Shown here: positions 4,479 through 51,310 of the stretch, piece by piece
How positions within the stretch are numbered: the first letter of the stretch is position 1
Layout of the letters: each line of letters begins with the position of its first letter
Origin: an uncultured Nitrososphaerota archaeon
GTDB lineage: Archaea > Thermoproteota > Nitrososphaeria > Nitrososphaerales > CADDZS01
DNA: 64,000 bases
Assembly (NCBI GenBank): GCA_963799845.1
Contig: CAWCYI010000006.1
Span: forward strand, 896,001-960,000
Direction of reading: 5' to 3'
The notes under the pieces: model-generated
The model's input: only the letters and a program-made list of their open reading frames with translations
What the model was told of the DNA's origin: nothing
The model's database searches: none
Translations under genes and position numbers: made by a program

Positions 4479-4537
4479 TTTACTAGTAAATCCCGAGTGC
4501 GAGATTTGGGATTTGAACCCCAATTTACTAGTAAAAA
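4479..4537 (+). repeat. dispersed repeat, full unit with two TTTACTAGTAAA palindromes flanking a hairpin
   Basis: TTTACTAGTAAA at 4479 and 4524; AAATCCCGA/TTGGGATTT stem between them. Confidence 0.9.
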
Positions 4538-6886: not shown

Positions 6887-7040
6887 AAGCCGAGGAATCG
6901 ACTGAAAGAGGTAAATGGCATCGATATCGTATTGTTTCTTACGTATCTCATAATTTTCAGCTGACAATGAGAGAAACAAGAATTGATGTTTGGCTGGTTG
7001 AAGGAGAAATGTTTGAAGTTTTAGCTGGAGAAAAACAAAT

Positions 7041-7247
7041 ATGAAGAGAAAATGTCCTTTGATTGTAGATTGTAAAGATGCAACAGATTATCTCACCTTA
7101 CAAGGAATAGCTGAACATATTAGATTAGTTCATCCTCATGAAGCGAGAGTTGCAATTAAGAAAGCATTAATTGATGCAGAAAAAGCATGTCGAGGAGTCG
7201 TGCCCTTGTGGGCAATAGGTGGCTCAAGACATTTGGAACGTTTCTAG
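7041..7247 (+). CDS. small C2H2-like zinc-finger protein
   Basis: CPLIVDC...HIRLVH; AT-rich. Confidence 0.5.
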   Translation: MKRKCPLIVDCKDATDYLTLQGIAEHIRLVHPHEARVAIKKALIDAEKACRGVVPLWAIGGSRHLERF

Positions 7248-7248
7248 T

Positions 7249-7549
7249 CATGGGCATAATCATCGCAATTGCTGCTGCGATCGTGAGTTTGATCAGCGCA
7301 GCATTTGGAGCTGCAGACTCGGTGGTTAGCGGGCTTCTTTCGGCATTCTATCAACCCCTCATTCCGATTCTGCTTGCTGTCTACTATTACTCTAACCGGG
7401 CCAGACTTGCACCAATCGCTCAAAACCAAATTCCACCTCCGCCGCCTCCTGGAAAGGCAACCGGACCGAGGTTCTGTCCTAACTGTGGTACCCAACTTGC
7501 GGCCAATCCTACTTTCTGTCCGAGTTGCGGGGCAAGAGTAACCACTTAG
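7249..7549 (+). pseudogene. membrane protein 3' fragment with C-terminal zinc ribbon
   Basis: TM segments, poly-Pro, FCPNCG...FCPSCG. Confidence 0.6.
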
Positions 7550-7755
7550 GATGTTGGCTCATCATTGTGCACGGTGGAGGACTTGCTTTCACGAACGCGC
7601 TGTTCGCGATTCTCGACGAAATCGTTACGAAGTTGCTTGAGCGATAATTTGTCACTCTAGAATATACTAAAATGGGACTCGCACCCTTGGGCCTCATCTT
7701 TTACTAGGTGACATGATCGACCGTATTAAAGGAACGTAAAGCCACAGCCAAGCAC

Positions 7756-8732
7756 ATGTACGCAGCAATAGACTTGCACCAAAAAACTGTACAGCTAGTA
7801 CTCAAGGATGAAGGGGGAAGGATAGAAAACGAGCTGAAGATCAACAAGGATGCAAAAAGCATACTCGAATTTCTTGATGGTACTGATGCTGAAATAGTCA
7901 TGGAGTCTGGTTACAACCACGAACACATCTATGATCTTCTAAAGGAGGAAGGATACGATGTCAAGGTAGCTCATCCATTGATGGTTAAGGCGATCGCATA
8001 CGCAAAAGTGAAAAATGACAAGGTAGACGCAAGGACACTTGCAGATCTACTGAGACTGGACATGATACCGGAGTGCTACATCCCCAGCCAAGAGATAAGA
8101 GAAGTAAGAGACCTGGCAAGGAGGAGACATTATTTCGTCTCGACAAGAACGATGTTCAAAAACAAAATCCATGCAGAGCTCAGCAGGAGATGGATTGATT
8201 ACAGTAAAGATCTCTTCACGCAGACTGGGATGGACCATCTAAAATCGCTTCATATCGCAGCGGTAAATGACTACCTCGACTCAATTCAGTTCCTCGATGA
8301 GAAGATACGAGAGCTTGACGGCCAAATCAAGGAAAAGCTCTTGGCGACAAATATGCGAAGCTCCTTGTGACGGTGCCAGGAATATCCTACTACGGTGCGC
8401 TGCTGATTTCAAGCGAGATTGCAGACATCAACAGATTCCCAGACCCAGAACACCTGTGCTCCTATGCAAAACTGGCACCCGGAACTCATCAATCGGGAGA
8501 GACACAATACCAGAAAGCAGATCGTAACAAGGGCAATCACATGCTCAACTGGATATTGATCCAGTGTGCTCACATACACGTCCTAAACTGCAACTCGTCG
8601 ATTACTGGGCATTACAACAGGATCAAGGAAACGAGGGGAAACAAGATCGCCATCGTCGCAGCAGCAAGAAAACTGACGTGCGCAATCTACATGATGCTGA
8701 AGGAAGAAAGAGCCTTCAGGCTGGACGGCTAA
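7756..8732 (+). CDS. IS110 DEDD recombinase, frameshifted near 8340-8367
   Basis: AAIDLH, VMES, KNDKVDA; second frame VPGI...YAKLAPGTHQSG...AAARKL. Confidence 0.9.
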
Positions 8733-8740
8733 AACCATAA

Positions 8741-8887
8741 ACTGGGCTCGAGAATTTACTGCATCTTCAGGATGCGTTTACTAGGATGAGCCAAAGGCAA
8801 TAAGCGAAAGCCACAATGCTCTTTTGGAGCGAATGGGAGTATGCTCGTCCAGCATGACAAAAGAGATATTAAGAAATGTAGCCCAGT
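8741..8887 (+). ncRNA. predicted bridge RNA of IS110-A (right non-coding end)
   Basis: GAATTTACT (8752-60) and TTTACTAG (8777-84) flank a GCATC/GATGC hairpin, closed by GGCTC/GAGCC; donor guide ATGGGAG (8833-39); alternative outer stem ACTGGGCT/AGCCCAGT. Confidence 0.8.
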
Positions 8888-8926
8888 CGACATGGGAGTA
8901 AAATCTACTTGCGAAGAAAATCCGTG

Positions 8927-8964
8927 GCGGAATGTGGGACCCCCGCACGAATTTACTAGTAAAA
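8927..8964 (+). repeat. dispersed repeat copy
   Basis: GCGGAATGTGGGACCCCCGCACGAATTTACTAGTAAAA. Confidence 0.9.
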
Positions 8965-9130
8965 GATCGCCTCAAAAAAATCCGAAATTCACAATGGTCA
9001 CAGTAGTCGTTCTAGCTCGCTCTGACTCTGGCCTAGAAGATACCCTTCATCTTTGTCCAATTCCAAGGCTGGTTACAAGAAGATTCGATTATTGAATACT
9101 AGAATCTTGGACGTTCTTTGGGAACAAGAA

Positions 9131-11143
9131 TCAGAGGATCTGCTGCGCCTGAGTTTGGCTGTGACCTCTGATCGCTCTATCAAAACCAATTTTGCTGAGA
9201 ACCACCAGCCACCGGGGATCCTGCCAGAGATTCTCAAATGCGAAATCGACCGCTACTGAAAATAGATATCCAGATCGTTCTTCGATCGCCCTGAAGAGCC
9301 ACTCGAACGCCCTGTCATTGTCCCCGGTATTGGCGTAGACTCCTGCAATGGCAATCGGAGATCCCTTTCCGTTTTCCCAAAGGTCTAGCAGCTTGGAAAG
9401 GATCCTGATTGCCTCCTCGTTTTTTCCAGCTTTTGAATACGCGTAGGCGAGATCATTTAGGTGGAAGGGGACGCCTTCACCAGCCAAATCAATCGCCTTC
9501 TTTATCTCGGAAATTCCTTGATCGAACTCACCGGTGCGCACGTGGCAACAGCCTAGCGCGTCGAATGCAAATGCTGAGTTAGGATCCAGATAAATGGCAT
9601 TCATCAAAAACGCCTTGGCCTCTTCGACGTGGCCATTGTAGAGATGGACGACCCCGGCGATTGTAAAGGTCTCGGCGGAAAGTGGGTCGAGATCTATTGC
9701 GCGTTTTGCTTCCCTTATCGCCTCATCGGATCTTCCGAATTGTCCTAAGAATAACGAAAACAGTGTGTGGACGTAGGAAAGACTCGGATTCAGTTGGATG
9801 GCTCGCTGGAATTCCAGTTCCGCTTCAGCGAATTTCCAATCCTGTAGATTCAACACTGTAGCAAGTGCGGCGTGGGCTTCAGCGATGGAGTCATCAATTT
9901 CCAATGCTCTTTGCGCGTAGGCTCTCGCCTTGGGGAGCACTCCTCTGGTCGGAATTATTTCCCATGCGCCTAGACCTGCGTAGCAATCGGCTATCGCGGC
10001 ATATGCCCGGGCGTAGCCCGGGTCCCTCTCTATCGCCTGCTCGAAAAGTTTGATTGCATCACCGTAAGATTTCTCCGTAACGTGGAGAGAATAAAATCGT
10101 CCGCGCAGATATAGCGAGTGCGCCTCAACACTCATCGTTCCCAAATTCTCGATTCTTTCCCTGTCCCTATCCAGAAGCTTCAGTTCAAGGGAGCTCGCGA
10201 CATGCTGGGCTATCTCGCTTTGTATCGAAAACACGTCTTCAAGTGTCCTGTCATAGACCTCAGACCAGACTTGGCGGTCGGCGGCGACGTCGATCAGCTG
10301 CACCGACGTGCGCACGCGGCTCCCTGCACGGCGAATACTGCCCTCTAAGATACTTCCTACTTTGAGTTCTTCGCCAATCTCAGTTAGGCGCTTGATTTGA
10401 CCCTTGTACCGCATCACAGATGTTCGAGATACAACGCTGAGCTGAGTAATTTTCGAAACCGAGGAAATTAGCTCCTCCGTTATCCCGTCCGCGAAGAATT
10501 CGCTTTCCGGATCAGTACTCACTTTAGCGAATGGTAGAATGGCGATTCTATTTTTATCGAGTCGGGGAGTTCCGCGTTTGCTCCAGACCGCCCTCTCCCA
10601 GGGGAGAAGGATCTTGTAGATCGTGATAGGGACATTGACATTTTTTAGCTGCGTAAACTCAAGTTGGACAATTGGAAGTCCGAGTTTGTTCCTTATCTGA
10701 TCAAAAACCTGACCTGAAATGCAGATTCCCTCAGGGTCTGCGAGAGGCTGGATCCGAGAAGTGATGTTAACAGTATCACCGAATACGTCACCCTCTCGAT
10801 GGACTACATCTCCATAGTGAATCCCTATCCGTAGTTTAGTTTTCCAAGGATCAGGAACAGACCTATTGGATTCGTGAAAGGACTTTTGAATTTCTACCGA
10901 GCACTTGCAAGCCTCCAGCACGTCTTCGAATTCGATTAGAAAAGAATCCCCGATGGTCTTGACTTCCCGCGCGTGGAATTTATGAATTAACTCTCGAACC
11001 TTTCGATTGTGCATTTCCAGAGATTCAAGAGCGCGCGATTCATCCAACTGCGTCAGCGAGGTGTATCCTACCAGATCAGTGAACATGATTGCTGAGAGGT
11101 TTCGCATATCGCAGTCGCGCCTGACAACCACTTGCTTGGCCAT
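9131..11143 (-). CDS. class III adenylate/guanylate cyclase with TolB-N-like and TPR domains
   Basis: AIMFTDLVGYT, KTIGDSF, RIGIHYGDV, GDTVNITSRI, IAILPF...DGITEELI, TPRs. Confidence 0.92.
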   Translation of the reverse strand: MAKQVVVRRDCDMRNLSAIMFTDLVGYTSLTQLDESRALESLEMHNRKVRELIHKFHAREVKTIGDSFLIEFEDVLEACKCSVEIQKSFHESNRSVPDPWKTKLRIGIHYGDVVHREGDVFGDTVNITSRIQPLADPEGICISGQVFDQIRNKLGLPIVQLEFTQLKNVNVPITIYKILLPWERAVWSKRGTPRLDKNRIAILPFAKVSTDPESEFFADGITEELISSVSKITQLSVVSRTSVMRYKGQIKRLTEIGEELKVGSILEGSIRRAGSRVRTSVQLIDVAADRQVWSEVYDRTLEDVFSIQSEIAQHVASSLELKLLDRDRERIENLGTMSVEAHSLYLRGRFYSLHVTEKSYGDAIKLFEQAIERDPGYARAYAAIADCYAGLGAWEIIPTRGVLPKARAYAQRALEIDDSIAEAHAALATVLNLQDWKFAEAELEFQRAIQLNPSLSYVHTLFSLFLGQFGRSDEAIREAKRAIDLDPLSAETFTIAGVVHLYNGHVEEAKAFLMNAIYLDPNSAFAFDALGCCHVRTGEFDQGISEIKKAIDLAGEGVPFHLNDLAYAYSKAGKNEEAIRILSKLLDLWENGKGSPIAIAGVYANTGDNDRAFEWLFRAIEERSGYLFSVAVDFAFENLWQDPRWLVVLSKIGFDRAIRGHSQTQAQQIL

Positions 11144-11200: not shown

Positions 11201-11311
11201 GTGGGGGCGACCCCCGCACGAATTTACTAGTAAAAATCCATCCCGGTGCGTAACTCCACAGTCGATGAGTTTAGGCTAGAAACGGGATTCGGACGCGAAT
11301 TTACTAGCAAA
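11201..11311 (+). repeat. two dispersed repeat copies
   Basis: CCCCCGCACGAATTTACTAGTAAAAA (palindrome at 11223) and GGGATTCGGACGCGAATTTACTAGCAAA (11300). Confidence 0.85.
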
Positions 11312-31262: not shown

Positions 31263-31465
31263 ATGTTATTCAGAACAATATTGTCCTGGCCACAGCATGG
31301 GAAAAGTGCGACGAATTAGAAGACCACCCCAAATCGATCGCATCTGGCGATTGTTTAGGCTCGTCCTAAAAAAGAGGTTCCGAACCTATTTCAGTCCGAA
31401 TCCCCAGCGGGCATGAAAATCTTAGATTAGCCTCTCCCCTCCAGCAAGAGACAGCTGGAGTTGTG

Positions 31466-31618
31466 GTCATGGATCCCCGCAGCCTTCGAATCTCTTGTGC
31501 CTTGTGCATGTTCCCCAGCATGGCTGCACAGTCATCGTCACAATTGACGATGATCGAAACGACCGGCCCGCTTGTCCATAATGGACGTACGGGAGATTGT
31601 CGGTCTGGGATCCATGAC
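31466..31618 (+). ncRNA. predicted bridge RNA of IS110-B (left non-coding end)
   Basis: 12-bp closing stem; target loop CGAATCTCT/TCCCCAG; donor loop GCCCGCT/ACGGGAG matching the element's own junctions. Confidence 0.85.
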
Positions 31619-31659
31619 GCAAACAACCAGTCAAACAATAGGAGTATGAATCGAAACCA

Positions 31660-32889
31660 ATGACGAGAGTCGGAATAGACGCACATAAGAAGAGCTGCAC
31701 CACGCAGGTCTTCGCGGACGGAGAAGAGTCACCCATACAATCCTTCGTCTTCAAGACGAGCAGGGCAGGAGTCTCTGAGATGCTAGCAAAGATTCCGGAC
31801 AAATCTGTATTTGTCATCGAATCTAGCACAACTGGAAAGGCGGTCACGAGAATGATTTCTTCTTTCGCATCAAACCAGCACGTGATTCACATGGTTGCGC
31901 CACCAGAGAAGAAAGCATCTGTGAAAACCGATAAGAGAGACTGCGAGCGTATCGTCAAGGAGGATGCACTGGGCTACTTGAGAAGGTGCTACGTTCCCTC
32001 ACAGTACATAGAAGACATGCGCTTTCTTGTGACCCAACAGATAGAGATTGGCGCAAAGATATCGAGAGTAAAGAACCAGATCCAAGCTCTACTGGAGAGA
32101 AACATGGTCCAGAGCGAGTTCTCAGAATTCTCTGACGTGTTCAGTAACGGAGGTCTTCAAAAGCTCGGAGAGATAGAGCTTCCAAAGCAAGACAGGCTGG
32201 CTCTCGCATTGCATCTTTCGGAGCTCAAGTTCTATGCAACCCAGCATACGGAGGTTGAGACCGAGATTGCAAAGATGGCAGCCTCAGACGAAGACTGCCA
32301 GCTTCTGTTCAGTCACCCTGGCATCAATGCTTTCACCGCAGTAGCCATCAAGGCAAGAATAGGAGACGCTTCAAGGTTCCCCACAAAGAAACATCTCTGC
32401 TCGTATGCCGGAGTCGTTCCAGGTGCTGACAACAGTGGAGAGCGTGAGTCCCACCACGAACACGTAAAGCACGGCGACGTCATATTGAAGTACGCTCTAA
32501 CATGCGCAGTGAGTGGAGCCGTGAAAGCCAAGACGGATTCTGCTGTCAAAAGAGTCTACCTGAAGCACATCAAGAGGGGGAAAGCTCCTCAGGAGGCTCA
32601 GGTTGATGCTGCAAGGAAACTCGCCTGCATTGTCTGGAAGATGCTTACATTCAAGCAGAGGTACGTCGAGGAGGACAAGTATCTGACAGCGAAGAAGATG
32701 AGGCAAACATCCTTCAATGCTCAAAGAGTCATCAAAGACGCGATACTACCAGAGAGCGTTCCAGAGCTAGCCAAAAGCCTTTCATCGGACGTTAGCGTAC
32801 TGGAGCAGTACTCAACGAATCTTGATCGCATGCTTGGCCGTCACAATCGGAGAAAAAAGGAAAATAGCAGGCAGACAGGAGTGACTTGA
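31660..32889 (+). CDS. IS110 DEDD recombinase, intact
   Basis: VGIDAHK, VIES, KTDKRD, HPGI, YAGVVPGADNSG, ARKL. Confidence 0.93.
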   Translation: MTRVGIDAHKKSCTTQVFADGEESPIQSFVFKTSRAGVSEMLAKIPDKSVFVIESSTTGKAVTRMISSFASNQHVIHMVAPPEKKASVKTDKRDCERIVKEDALGYLRRCYVPSQYIEDMRFLVTQQIEIGAKISRVKNQIQALLERNMVQSEFSEFSDVFSNGGLQKLGEIELPKQDRLALALHLSELKFYATQHTEVETEIAKMAASDEDCQLLFSHPGINAFTAVAIKARIGDASRFPTKKHLCSYAGVVPGADNSGERESHHEHVKHGDVILKYALTCAVSGAVKAKTDSAVKRVYLKHIKRGKAPQEAQVDAARKLACIVWKMLTFKQRYVEEDKYLTAKKMRQTSFNAQRVIKDAILPESVPELAKSLSSDVSVLEQYSTNLDRMLGRHNRRKKENSRQTGVT

Positions 32890-32967
32890 TGATGTTTAAT
32901 ATTCCTTCTTCAATAGAAGATTTTCACGGGAGCGATTCGGACCCCTCCGGCTAAGAAATCTTTGCAA

Positions 32968-50046: not shown

Positions 50047-50219
50047 TCCCACCGAGTGCGGGATGTGGGACCCCCGCACGAATTTACTAGTAAAAATGCA
50101 AACCCTCTGTAATCCTGCAAAACCAGAAGTCGGGCAGGAAACGGGATTTGTGCGCGAAGTTTACGAGCAAATCACGAGTACGTGAATGTGGGATTTGGGC
50201 ACGAATTTACTGGTAAAAA
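50047..50219 (+). repeat. cluster of three tandem repeat units
   Basis: palindrome variants at 50083, 50160 and 50206, each preceded by GGGA(T/C)...CGAA. Confidence 0.88.
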
Positions 50220-50924
50220 GTGATAGCAAAAATGTTGGGATCTTTCGGGATTCATCGAAGCGCTTATGACGATGAACATGGGGATTAGGTCCTTGTTGCT
50301 CTGCCTGCCTATATGGCTCTAGGCTTTCAACGCTTTTGTTTATTTTCTACCCTTTCGTTGAATAGGGTTTAACCATCAGAACCCCGTCCTCCAGAATTGC
50401 AGATGGCTTCCAAATTAGGCGCAGATTGCCCCTGTGGCTTCTCCTTCGCAACTCCACACGGCGAAGACGAAGCGATAGCCGTGGTACAGGAACATGTTCG
50501 GCGTATCCATTCGAAGGACTACCCCAACGGCCTCAGCAGGGACGAAGCAAAGAGCGAACTAAAGAGCAAGTAGCACAGGGGCCCACTGGCGGCAGGAGAA
50601 ATCTGTCTCATTTTCCTGTCGCGGTCCCCCTACCCCCTTTTTTTTCTCTTCAGGGCAATAATGCTCGCAACATGAAATAATGTCCTCTCGAAAATTGGCA
50701 GACCGCCGCTCAGTCAGCTTCAATTATTCCCACTCCAGAGTTTTCTCTAGGGAGCGTAATGGCCATGGTCCCACGCCTTTTTGCTCTCATCGCGTTTCTC
50801 ACAATCATGTCAAGGATTGCCCGAAGAAGTTCAATCTGAAACAATATGCAAGGGAGTCCAAGGCCCCAGCTTGAGTGTTCGGAGCCGAGATTTGATTCTT
50901 TTCAATAGCTTAGTCGCATTAGTG

Positions 50925-51226
50925 AATTCCATCTGCGGGATGGGGGGATTCGAACACGAATTTACTTGACGCGCATCAGTTGTTTGTAAAGTACCGTCGC
51001 CTAGACTGTATAGTGAAAGAAATTATCCTTTCCAATGAAGTAGTGGCGAGAGCGAAGTGCCTTATCCCTTACTAGTAAAATCAACTTTCAGAATGATCCC
51101 ACGCGCGGAATGTGGGACCCCCGCACGAATTTATTAGTAAAAATACATGTCAATTCACAGGATTTTTGAAAGATGAAACGTACAGATCAGGCGAGGTACG
51201 GGATTCGCGCACGTATTTACTAGTAA
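50925..51226 (+). repeat. cluster of four repeat units
   Basis: palindrome variants at 50961, 51069, 51130 and 51216. Confidence 0.88.
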
Positions 51227-51310
51227 CACTAAGAAAAGCTCGGGGTTCTTTACTCGTGATGGTGCGAAAGAGATATTATCTGAGACACCATCGACCACAA
51301 TGAAAGAATT

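Follow-up and report, generated by a model that had tools for sequence, protein, structure and literature searches.

A 64,000-nt stretch of the 4.6-Mb genome of a soil archaeon of the Nitrososphaerota (G000:C6:896001-960000; the window) carries at positions 7706-8898 what is very probably an IS1111-type insertion sequence (IS) of the IS110 family, whose right end encodes a predicted bridge/seek RNA programmed for the palindrome of a dispersed repeat, TTTACTAGTAAA. The mechanism is a known one, found here in a new archaeal family. A preliminary description of the window had already placed the element inside one copy of the palindrome and had read its right end as programmed against it. Both points hold: the junctions lie in the palindrome, and the guides match it and covary with the flanks across the family. 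All motif and junction coordinates of that description proved correct when the sequence was read again.

To delimit the element, we compared its two junctions. On the left, TTTTACT (7699-7705) is followed by AG (7706-07) and then by GTGACATG, or, in a longer reading, ...CATCTTTTACT-AG-GTGACATG; on the right, ...ACATGGG is followed by AG (8897-98) and TAAAAT (8899-8904), the longer reading being ...CGACATGGG-AG-TAAAATC. As AG is the sole dinucleotide common to both junctions, it is the core, in place of the CT named in the preliminary description, and either AG may be counted as the element's. Excision from the TTTTACT-AG and AG-TAAAAT junctions would restore TTTTACTAGTAAAAT, as had been proposed. 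The non-coding ends measure 48 nt on the left and 166 nt on the right, and the parts of the element and its target, all on the forward strand, are as follows:

7699-7705: left target half TTTTACT; GCTTACT, ATTTACT and GAGTTACT stand at the same place in other copies.
7706-7707: left-junction core AG, ambiguous with 8897-8898, as one AG belongs to the element.
7708-7755: left end, 48 nt, with the sub-terminal inverted repeat CATGATCGAC at 7712-7721 and the conserved motif AAAGCCACA at 7738-7746.
7756-8732: IS110-family recombinase gene in two frames (7756-8370 and 8367-8732), with the stop codon TAA at 8730-8732.
8733-8898: right-end non-coding region, 166 nt, a predicted bridge/seek RNA (from covariation in a 43-homologue alignment).
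8886-8896: right terminus GTCGACATGGG, containing the sub-terminal inverted repeat and the left-donor sequence.
8897-8898: right-junction core AG, seen in copies and homologues.
8899-8904: right target half TAAAAT, from the reading of the junction.

The sub-terminal inverted repeat CATGATCGAC pairs with GTCGACATG (8886-8894) at 9 of 10 positions with a 1-nt indel, and across homologue groups its TCGAC/TCGC variants change jointly in the left and right ends (both judged by eye).

A search of the genome with the whole element returned four copies, three of them full and one a fragment:

Copy A: this window, the reference; left flank TTTTACT, right flank TAAAATC.
Copy B: C4:1954607-1957756, 99-100% identical to A, split by 1.95 kb of foreign DNA; flanks GCTTACT and TAAATAC.
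Copy C: C6:961378-962586, 84% identical to A; flanks ATTTACT and TAAATTCGTGCGGGGGTCCCACAT.
Copy D: G000:C1:164079-164198, reverse strand, a 120-bp 5' fragment, 96% identical to A; left flank GAGTTACT, no right flank.

All three full copies and the fragment are inserted in (T/C)TTACT-AG-TAAA, each time with AG between flank and element (in copy D, the left junction proper reads GAGTTACT-AG-GTGACATG). The outer flanks of the copies are unrelated, which indicates separate insertions, and, measured against the asymmetric repeat core alongside each, copies A and C point in opposite directions. AG thus stands at both junctions in 3/3 full copies, and at the readable homologue ends, as expected of an IS110 core, and the extreme ends form no inverted repeats. 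The foreign DNA in copy B is a 1.95-kb group II intron (G000:C4:1954936-1956883; L004:1853-1972 and L002:1418-1500) on the sense strand of the recombinase, with matches to Rfam RF02003 (51.4 bits) and RF00029 (48.1 bits), both above their gathering scores, and an open reading frame with an RVT_1 domain (E = 1e-38). Copy D ends at a CG-rich stretch, GGCGCGCGCGC, that is like the start of this intron but lies at another position of the IS.

The target belongs to a repeat family whose reality the counts confirm. Genome-wide, the 12-nt palindrome TTTACTAGTAAA occurs 40 times exactly, against 0.41 occurrences expected by base composition, and 79 times with at most one mismatch; at the latter stringency the window alone holds 14 against 0.15 expected, a number reached by 0 of 100 shuffles. 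The commonest spacing of successive palindromes is 45 bp (11 pairs), and the typical repeat unit of about 57 bp consists of a palindrome, about 33 nt resembling TTCGTGCGGGGGTCCCACATCTCGCACTCGGGA in its inner part, and a second palindrome. In 31 of the 79 palindromes, the core lies within 30 nt on one arm. The palindromes cluster at 927-935, 1373-1377 and 1919-1973 kb of contig C4 and at 900-968 kb of contig C6, and copies A, B and C all fall inside these clusters. Among 30 related genomes in which we counted the palindrome, the exact sequence occurs 0 to 6 times per genome and a reversed control pattern 0 to 2 times; most of these genomes are fragmented, so repeats there may be under-assembled. 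Within the window, repeat units lie at 4479-4535, 8952-8963, 11223-11311 and 50083-51227, as they do elsewhere in the genome. Next after the element comes the following:

8952-8963, no strand assigned: next intact palindrome TTTACTAGTAAA, preceded by the repeat core ...ATGTGGGACCCCCGCACGAA.

The repeat core has the variants GTGCGGGGGTCCCAC and GGGGTTCAAATCCCAC, the latter of which resembles a tRNA T-arm; when a tRNA origin of the core (GGTTCAAATCCCAC-like) was considered, ARAGORN found no tRNA in the window. The unit may be MITE-like, REP-like or tRNA-derived.

To place the element in its family, we collected homologous loci by searches with a 21-protein alignment, which gave 80 metagenome loci (of 101 confirmed) and 19 named-genome loci; the 59 loci whose protein match reached the C-terminus were used further. 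An intact 325-aa orthologue from the same genus has 700 relatives at E <= 1e-20. The few that bear a source name are IS110 family transposases of Nitrososphaerales or Nitrososphaerota archaea, with one attributed to a spirochaete, and all 19 of the named-genome loci are titled as Nitrososphaerota lineages or "archaeon." In 54 of the 59 loci, the right terminus CGACAT(G/A)GGAG (with at most two substitutions) was found 117-222 nt past the protein match. Right ends of the homologues measure 135-230 nt, their long non-coding region likewise lying downstream of the gene, and the readable left ends all begin AG-GTG...ATG.TCG. The set of parsed right ends (n = 56) was drawn from 53 of the 59 loci, to which L028 and copies A, B and C were added; L059, whose right end was truncated on extraction, was left out, L062 was entered by hand, and L073 was counted despite a doubtful parse. 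For the RNA alignment we used 43 distinct right ends of 135-177 nt, leaving out the four longest (196-230 nt) and L059, and a tree was built from 44 rows of coding regions.

Within the right end, the following segments were recognized, again all on the forward strand:

8745-8749: 5' strand of helix P1, GGCTC, pairing with 8788-8792 and closing the putative target-binding loop; three pairs change on both sides (CG to UA).
8752-8760: 5' guide strand GAATTTACT, antisense to the core and right target AG-TAAATTC; CT at 8759-8760 complements the core.
8761-8775: hairpin P2, GCATC ttcag GATGC, with stems at 8761-65 and 8771-75; two pairs change on both sides (GC to AU and CG to UA).
8777-8784: 3' guide strand TTTACTAG, sense to the left target and core TTTACT-AG; it would pair with the bottom strand.
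8788-8792: 3' strand of P1, GAGCC, supported by covariation.
8807-8817: 5' strand of the donor module, AAAGCCACAAT, invariant in the family; its CAC could pair with the GTG at the start of the left end, and it contains no complement of the core.
8817-8831: hairpin P4, TGCTC ttttg GAGCG; 12 of 43 rows have both partners of pair 123/133 changed.
8832-8839: AATGGGAG, the 3' donor-module strand, with the sense sequence of the right end and core ACATGGG-AG and with ATGGGAG at 8833-39.
8842-8854: conserved segment TGCTCGTCCAGCA, with a possible helix P5 (TGC/GCA) that has no covariation support.

Together the two guides describe the site TTTACTAGTAAATTC, of which the genome has 14, both strands counted together, and the site of copy C fits the 5' guide at 9/9 positions. 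The same arrangement recurs in the homologues, all with a conserved P2 inside the loop that P1 closes: upstream of P2, a strand with CT at its end is the reverse complement of AG plus the right flank, and downstream of P2, a strand with AG at its end repeats the left flank plus AG. Some 55 homologous elements on Nitrososphaerota contigs use many different targets, with classes that include CTTGAC-AG-AACC, GTTAAC-AG-AACC, CTTTA-AG-CCCCC, GCTCTGT-AG-AAACCA, CTCGAA-AG-AATCCC and ATTAT-AG-AGAGA. The (T/C)TTACT-AG-TAAA type occurs in five elements on other contigs as well (L056-L059 by both flanks, L060 by its right flank only), and L136, read on its left flank only (CTTACT), also fits the palindrome.

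For statistical comparison of guides and flanks, we scored the six variable positions beside the core. The 5' strand matched the right flank at 6/6 positions in 13 of 50 unique pairs, at 5/6 in 21, at 4/6 in 10, at 3/6 in 4 and at 2/6 in 2; for the 3' strand and the left flank, the 42 unique pairs were divided into 4, 27, 6, 3 and 2 in the same order, the outermost of the six positions usually being the mismatched one. There were 20 distinct guide hexamers on the 5' strand and 25 on the 3' strand. When each hexamer was represented once, 98 of 120 positions matched on the right (permutation mean, 53; maximum, 78) and 112 of 150 on the left (permutation mean, 58; maximum, 78), and 0 of 10,000 permutations reached the observed match on either side. 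On the 44-element tree, guides change about 23-24 times. In L077, L078, L087 and L089, the 5' guide ends in CA, not CT (GGGGGCA), which puts a mismatch opposite the A of AG, and the junctions of these elements still read AG.

The helices around the guides are also retained. RNAalifold applied to the alignment predicted P1, P2, a second hairpin (P4), a short CC/GG pair and P5. Across five specified helices, 92.7% of 931 cells hold standard pairs, a share that drops to 19-47% on shifting the 3' partners by one to three columns. Six pairs (38 cells) change on both sides, in P1 (three pairs), P2 (two pairs) and P4 (one pair, 12 rows); 0 of 500 shuffles reached the observed number of cells or the covariation score, and 27 of 500 reached the observed number of both-side-changing pairs. 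The inner stem of P4, GCTC (8818-21) with GAGC (8827-30), reads GTTC/GAAC in copy C. This covariation supports P1, P2 and P4. P3 (GGCT/AGCC) and P5 (TGC/GCA) never vary informatively and are neither supported nor refuted, and the CC/GG pair that closes the donor module in the RNAalifold prediction never varies. A covariance model built from the alignment had exactly three matches in the genome at E <= 0.01, namely, copies A, B and C, with no free-standing copies. A single-sequence minimum-free-energy fold of 8733-8904 (z = -2.15) joined ACTGGGCT to AGCCCAGT in a pairing that spans the entire RNA; since the 3' partner is missing from most relatives, this fold was rejected in favor of P1.

The donor module was read only in part as the preliminary description had it. 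That ATGGGAG matches the element's own end held: the segment lies 3' of the hairpin in the sense orientation and corresponds to the right end plus core. The internal AT(G/A)GGAG and the terminal ACAT(G/A)GGAG agree in 48/48 parsed distinct right ends (28 G/G and 20 A/A); L144 has no donor segment, and copy C failed the search pattern but reads G/G. The left donor guide had been called only a partial match. AAAGCCACA(A/G)T, which stands 5' of P4, is constant across the family, and the left end takes several forms (GTGAC, GTGGG, GTGAA, GTGAT); this strand could pair with at most GTG(G) of the left end, has purines where the complement of the core would be, and shows no covariation with the left end, so that any role of it is putative. 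CATGACA (8853-59), considered as a guide for the left end, is not kept in copy C or the nearest relatives. The 8-nt sequence AAAGCCAC is conserved in the family twice in the same orientation, in the left end before the start codon (7738-7745) and in the donor module (8807-8814), and no covariation links the positions that flank its two occurrences; one possibility is a motif, common to the RNA and the mRNA leader, to which a protein binds.

The protein belongs to the IS110 family. Its first frame (7756-8370) matches PF01548 (DEDD_Tnp_IS110; E = 3.2e-19, 69.7 bits against a cut-off of 29) and its second PF02371 (Transposase_20; E = 8.4e-18, 65 bits against a cut-off of 21.3), and LAPGTHQSG in the translation corresponds to the conserved P-x4-SG motif of the Transposase_20 domain (the wording of this C-terminal motif follows PMC11187229). 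The intact 325-aa orthologue, 88% identical to the window protein over the C-terminal part, scores 214.1 bits (cut-off, 140) with NF033542, "IS110 family RNA-guided transposase," a score that belongs to the orthologue and not to the split frames of the window. Homology to the solved ISCro4 and IS621 transposases was found at an E of about 1e-8 (IS621, E = 5e-8). Family membership is thus seen in both Pfam domains, in NF033542 (orthologue), in the core at both junctions and in the covariation of loop and target.

The preliminary description had taken the recombinase to be frameshifted and in need of repair. The two frames abut at a run of four A's (A4, 8333-8336), which copies A and B both have in the assembly. 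A short-read contig (857 nt, 8000-8855) reads one extra A after 8332 (A5) and shows no other difference; it is the sole contig across the site in a DNA run that contains 89% of the sampled sequence words (depth, 14.8/14.8). The one extra A joins the frames into ...IKEK-ALGDKYAKLLVTVPG..., colinear with ...IKEEALRDKYAKLLITVPG... of the intact orthologue. As copies A and B share A4, a systematic homopolymer miscall is likely; the frameshift most probably arose as such an error in the assembly, the alternative being variation between strains. The A5 run may be the source sample of the window, and it is therefore not independent support for the presence of the element, although it still bears on the base call.

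Two other readings of the right end were weighed against an IS1111-type guide RNA. The parse in the preliminary description was IS621-like, with GAATTTA-CT on the 5' strand as a sense left guide, a CT core and TTTACTAG as the right guide. Since the target is a palindrome, this parse fits the window copy too, and IS621 itself has this order and a CT core (PMC11208160). Copy A alone cannot separate the two parses, but relatives with non-palindromic targets can. We therefore compared guide orders over 35 such unique relatives at 16 positions each, scoring the earlier parse as the IS621 order with its core shifted leftward by two bases. Mean matches of 16 were 13.2 for core AG in the IS1111 order, 2.9 for the earlier parse and 2.3 for core AG in the IS621 order. 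CT is moreover absent at the right junction (GGGAG|TAAA), whereas AG alone is common to both junctions and is invariant in homologues with a readable left end, where the two bases to its left vary. The IS621-like parse is thus almost certainly wrong, and the guides stand in the reversed order of IS1111 seekRNAs. A different proposal does without any guide RNA and takes the matches in the right end to act as DNA, as copies of target half-sites that are bound by the recombinase or left over from recombination. Sequence matches alone cannot tell DNA from RNA, and no transcript was observed. Yet the matching strands always lie in the same internal loop, and the helices on either side of it stay paired by double changes (6 pairs, 38 cells), a pattern that marks a nucleic acid folded as a single strand. 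The two strands have opposite senses with respect to the target and share the core, which is also how seekRNAs are built; these copurify with their transposases and can be reprogrammed (PMC11187229). The orthologous protein also passes the "RNA-guided transposase" model. We consider the DNA-only proposal very improbable.

Several observations weigh against an IS1111-type guide-RNA element, or against its being complete. The site of copy A departs from the 5' guide at one position past TAAA (TAAAAT, where the guide pairs TAAATT). One of the two flanks is a poor fit to the guide in four homologues (L067, L149, L089 and L144), and L073 was counted although not reliably parsed; L146 fits after a 1-nt shift. 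In the donor module, the 5' strand is invariant and not complementary to the AG core, and the G/A agreement of the 3' strand amounts to about four changes on the tree, two of them on supported branches (sign test, P = 0.5), so that this covariation is only suggestive. An Rfam search of 7000-9600 found no relevant family and only two chance-level matches (E = 0.56 and 0.69). Of the 20 sequencing runs listed, two are on record as RNA, and these (X18 and X20) gave no cover of the right end, which says nothing either way on expression; their one and two contigs, 88-93% alike, cover only 7699-7812 and 7929-8079 and are, judging by that likeness, pieces of a relative's left end and coding region. 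No circle junctions or empty sites (no joints) were found in the four sequencing runs compared, and no orthologous empty locus in six other same-genus genomes, among which the left flank (7200-7705) matched G002 only, in part of a gene at 71% identity and in a different neighborhood. This assembly has no intact recombinase gene, as copies A and B share the frameshift and copy C has several breaks, and copy B also carries the group II intron. These last points bear on the possibility that the guide RNA is correctly programmed but that no copy is mobile now, which is compatible with the explanation we prefer: reading frames are broken in 3/3 copies of the assembly, and neither joints nor empty sites were seen in the four runs. 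On the other side, the A5 contig joins the frames into a protein colinear with the 325-aa orthologue, the sense-strand intron of copy B could be removed by splicing, and the 99-100% identity of copies A and B at different sites indicates recent movement. We regard such a dead relic as rather unlikely.

The preferred explanation, an IS1111-type element with a guide RNA, suggests the following mechanism. Transcription of the 166-nt right end would yield a bridge/seek RNA with a target loop that P1 closes and P2 caps. The 3' strand of the loop, TTTACTAG, would pair with the bottom strand opposite the left target and core TTTACT-AG, and the 5' guide, GAATTTACT, with AG-TAAATTC, i.e., the core and right target. 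The second module (AAAGCCACAAT, P4 and AATGGGAG) would hold the right end and core at the circle junction ...CATGGG-AG-GTGACATG..., and the DEDD recombinase would exchange strands at the AG core. Strand exchange at AG would leave AG at both junctions, and excision would restore the target. With the 12-nt palindrome bounding the approximately 57-bp repeat as its programmed site, the element would have dozens of intergenic landing sites, and this programming would explain why the IS copies sit in repeat palindromes. As the other strand of the palindrome has AG two bases to the left, insertion is expected to be possible in either orientation. The insertion sites, the covariation of guides with flanks and of helix partners, and the protein family are observed; transcription, RNA-protein binding, catalysis and present-day activity we infer from relatives studied by experiment.

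Other elements related to this system were also noted. The element at L083 (a metagenome contig, positions ~1150-2329) belongs to a distant clade with about 65% protein identity and has nearly the window element's guides, AGTTTACT and TTTACTAG; it sits in GTTACT-AG-TAAACCGGGGTCAAAA, the same palindrome beside a similar repeat core in another organism, a target shared either by descent or by convergence. L140, L141 and L142 are three identical elements of a different subgroup on one 1.8-Mb contig of a named metagenome-assembled genome; all three are flanked by GGCTCTGT on the left and by an identical 16 nt, AAACCATCATAGCTAG, on the right, and their P2 hairpin is expanded by about 40 nt. Going by these flanks, this subgroup also appears to target a repeated sequence. 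Nearer to the window element, a 415-aa IS110-family element of about 1548 bp was considered as a second family aiming at TTTACTAGTAAA and was rejected for its other ends (CCCCAGCGGGCATGAAAATC ... GATTTTCACGGGAG) and flanks (...CGAAT / ...TCGGAC-like), which do not use the palindrome. Its four copies, at 99.5% identity, lie at 31396-32943 of the window, C6:959630-961188(-), C6:1072757-1074305(-) and C4:1233461-1235008, one of them only about 190 bp from IS copy C.

The family forms a natural data set of about 20-25 different guide pairs with their cognate flanks, carried by 325-aa recombinases that are close relatives of one another, and it indicates which loop positions are read: about 6 nt plus the core on the right and about 5 nt plus the core on the left. 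For annotation, the recombinase frameshift should be flagged as a probable assembly error. A more far-reaching joint reading, which as a whole we think quite doubtful, is that this is a distinct, compact (325-aa) archaeal bridge-recombinase lineage with fast natural retargeting, a use of palindrome pairing beyond safe landing, and self-regulation through AAAGCCAC. If true, the fit of both guide strands to either half-site would permit both orientations of insertion; inversions and deletions in the repeat-dense regions that contain copies A, B and C could arise from oppositely oriented insertions or from recombination of occupied repeats with one another; and AAAGCCAC could make the recombinase an autoregulator that binds the leader of its own mRNA.

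To our knowledge, RNA-guided (bridge/seek RNA) transposition has been experimentally shown, since 2024, only in bacterial elements. A literature search found no paper on IS110 RNA-guided transposition in Nitrososphaerota, and the passages searched of a preprint on archaeal IS110 recombinases do not mention this phylum. Going by its sequence, the family described here would extend bridge/seek RNA transposition to a well-sampled archaeal lineage, the Nitrososphaerota, and leaves the known mechanism unchanged.

Compared with known systems, the element is closest in plan to the IS1111 group. Its downstream non-coding region, sub-terminal inverted repeats and reversed guide order show, on sequence grounds, an IS1111-type element: the left end is short (48 against 166 nt), the inverted repeats are of the 7-17 bp class, and the guides stand in the IS1111 order. 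ISPa11, one of that group, targets repetitive extragenic palindromic (REP) sequences. According to Siddiquee et al. 2024 (PMC11187229), IS1111-type elements have a long non-coding region downstream of the transposase gene. Their seekRNAs carry the complement of the top strand first (5') and that of the bottom strand second, with overlap of the two in the target, an order opposite to that of the IS110 type; seekRNAs copurify with transposases and can be reprogrammed, and ISPa11 has a conserved target at over 1000 sites. The elements described there (ISEc11, ISKpn4, ISPa11 and ISPst6) are thus like ours in the downstream non-coding region, the sub-terminal inverted repeats, the order and overlap of the segments, and the different targets of relatives; IS1111 transposases are reported to be 330-350 aa long, whereas this element is archaeal, with a 325-aa protein and the core AG, and is targeted to a perfect palindrome of 12 nt that stands at each end of a 57-bp repeat. 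A further IS1111-type element is similar in targeting the terminal repeat of another repeated or mobile sequence, while its host and target differ and the repeat unit here may not itself be mobile.

IS621 (Durrant et al. 2024, PMC11208160; Hiraizumi et al. 2024, PMC11208158) shares the DEDD and Transposase_20 recombinase, a loop whose two strands pair with opposite DNA strands, both including the 2-nt core, and a dispersed palindromic target. In these bridge RNAs, the core is included in each guide pairing, and IS110 elements are described as targeting REP sequences (PMC11208160). The RNA of IS621, however, lies in the left end, in the order sense then antisense and with CT, whereas here it would lie in the right end, in the reversed order and with AG; both donor-loop strands of IS621 are guides, whereas here a variable match is found in one strand only. 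ISPpu9 of Pseudomonas putida (PMC12288879) is likewise an IS110-family element in a REP with a small RNA, Ssr9, 3' of the transposase gene; this bacterial element has additional, free-standing genes for the RNA, whereas the predicted RNA here occurs only inside three IS copies. Dispersed palindromic repeats are well known as targets of IS110/IS1111 elements in bacteria (PMC11208160, PMC12288879). What is new here is the host lineage, the AG core, the perfectly palindromic target and the natural series of reprogrammed guides.

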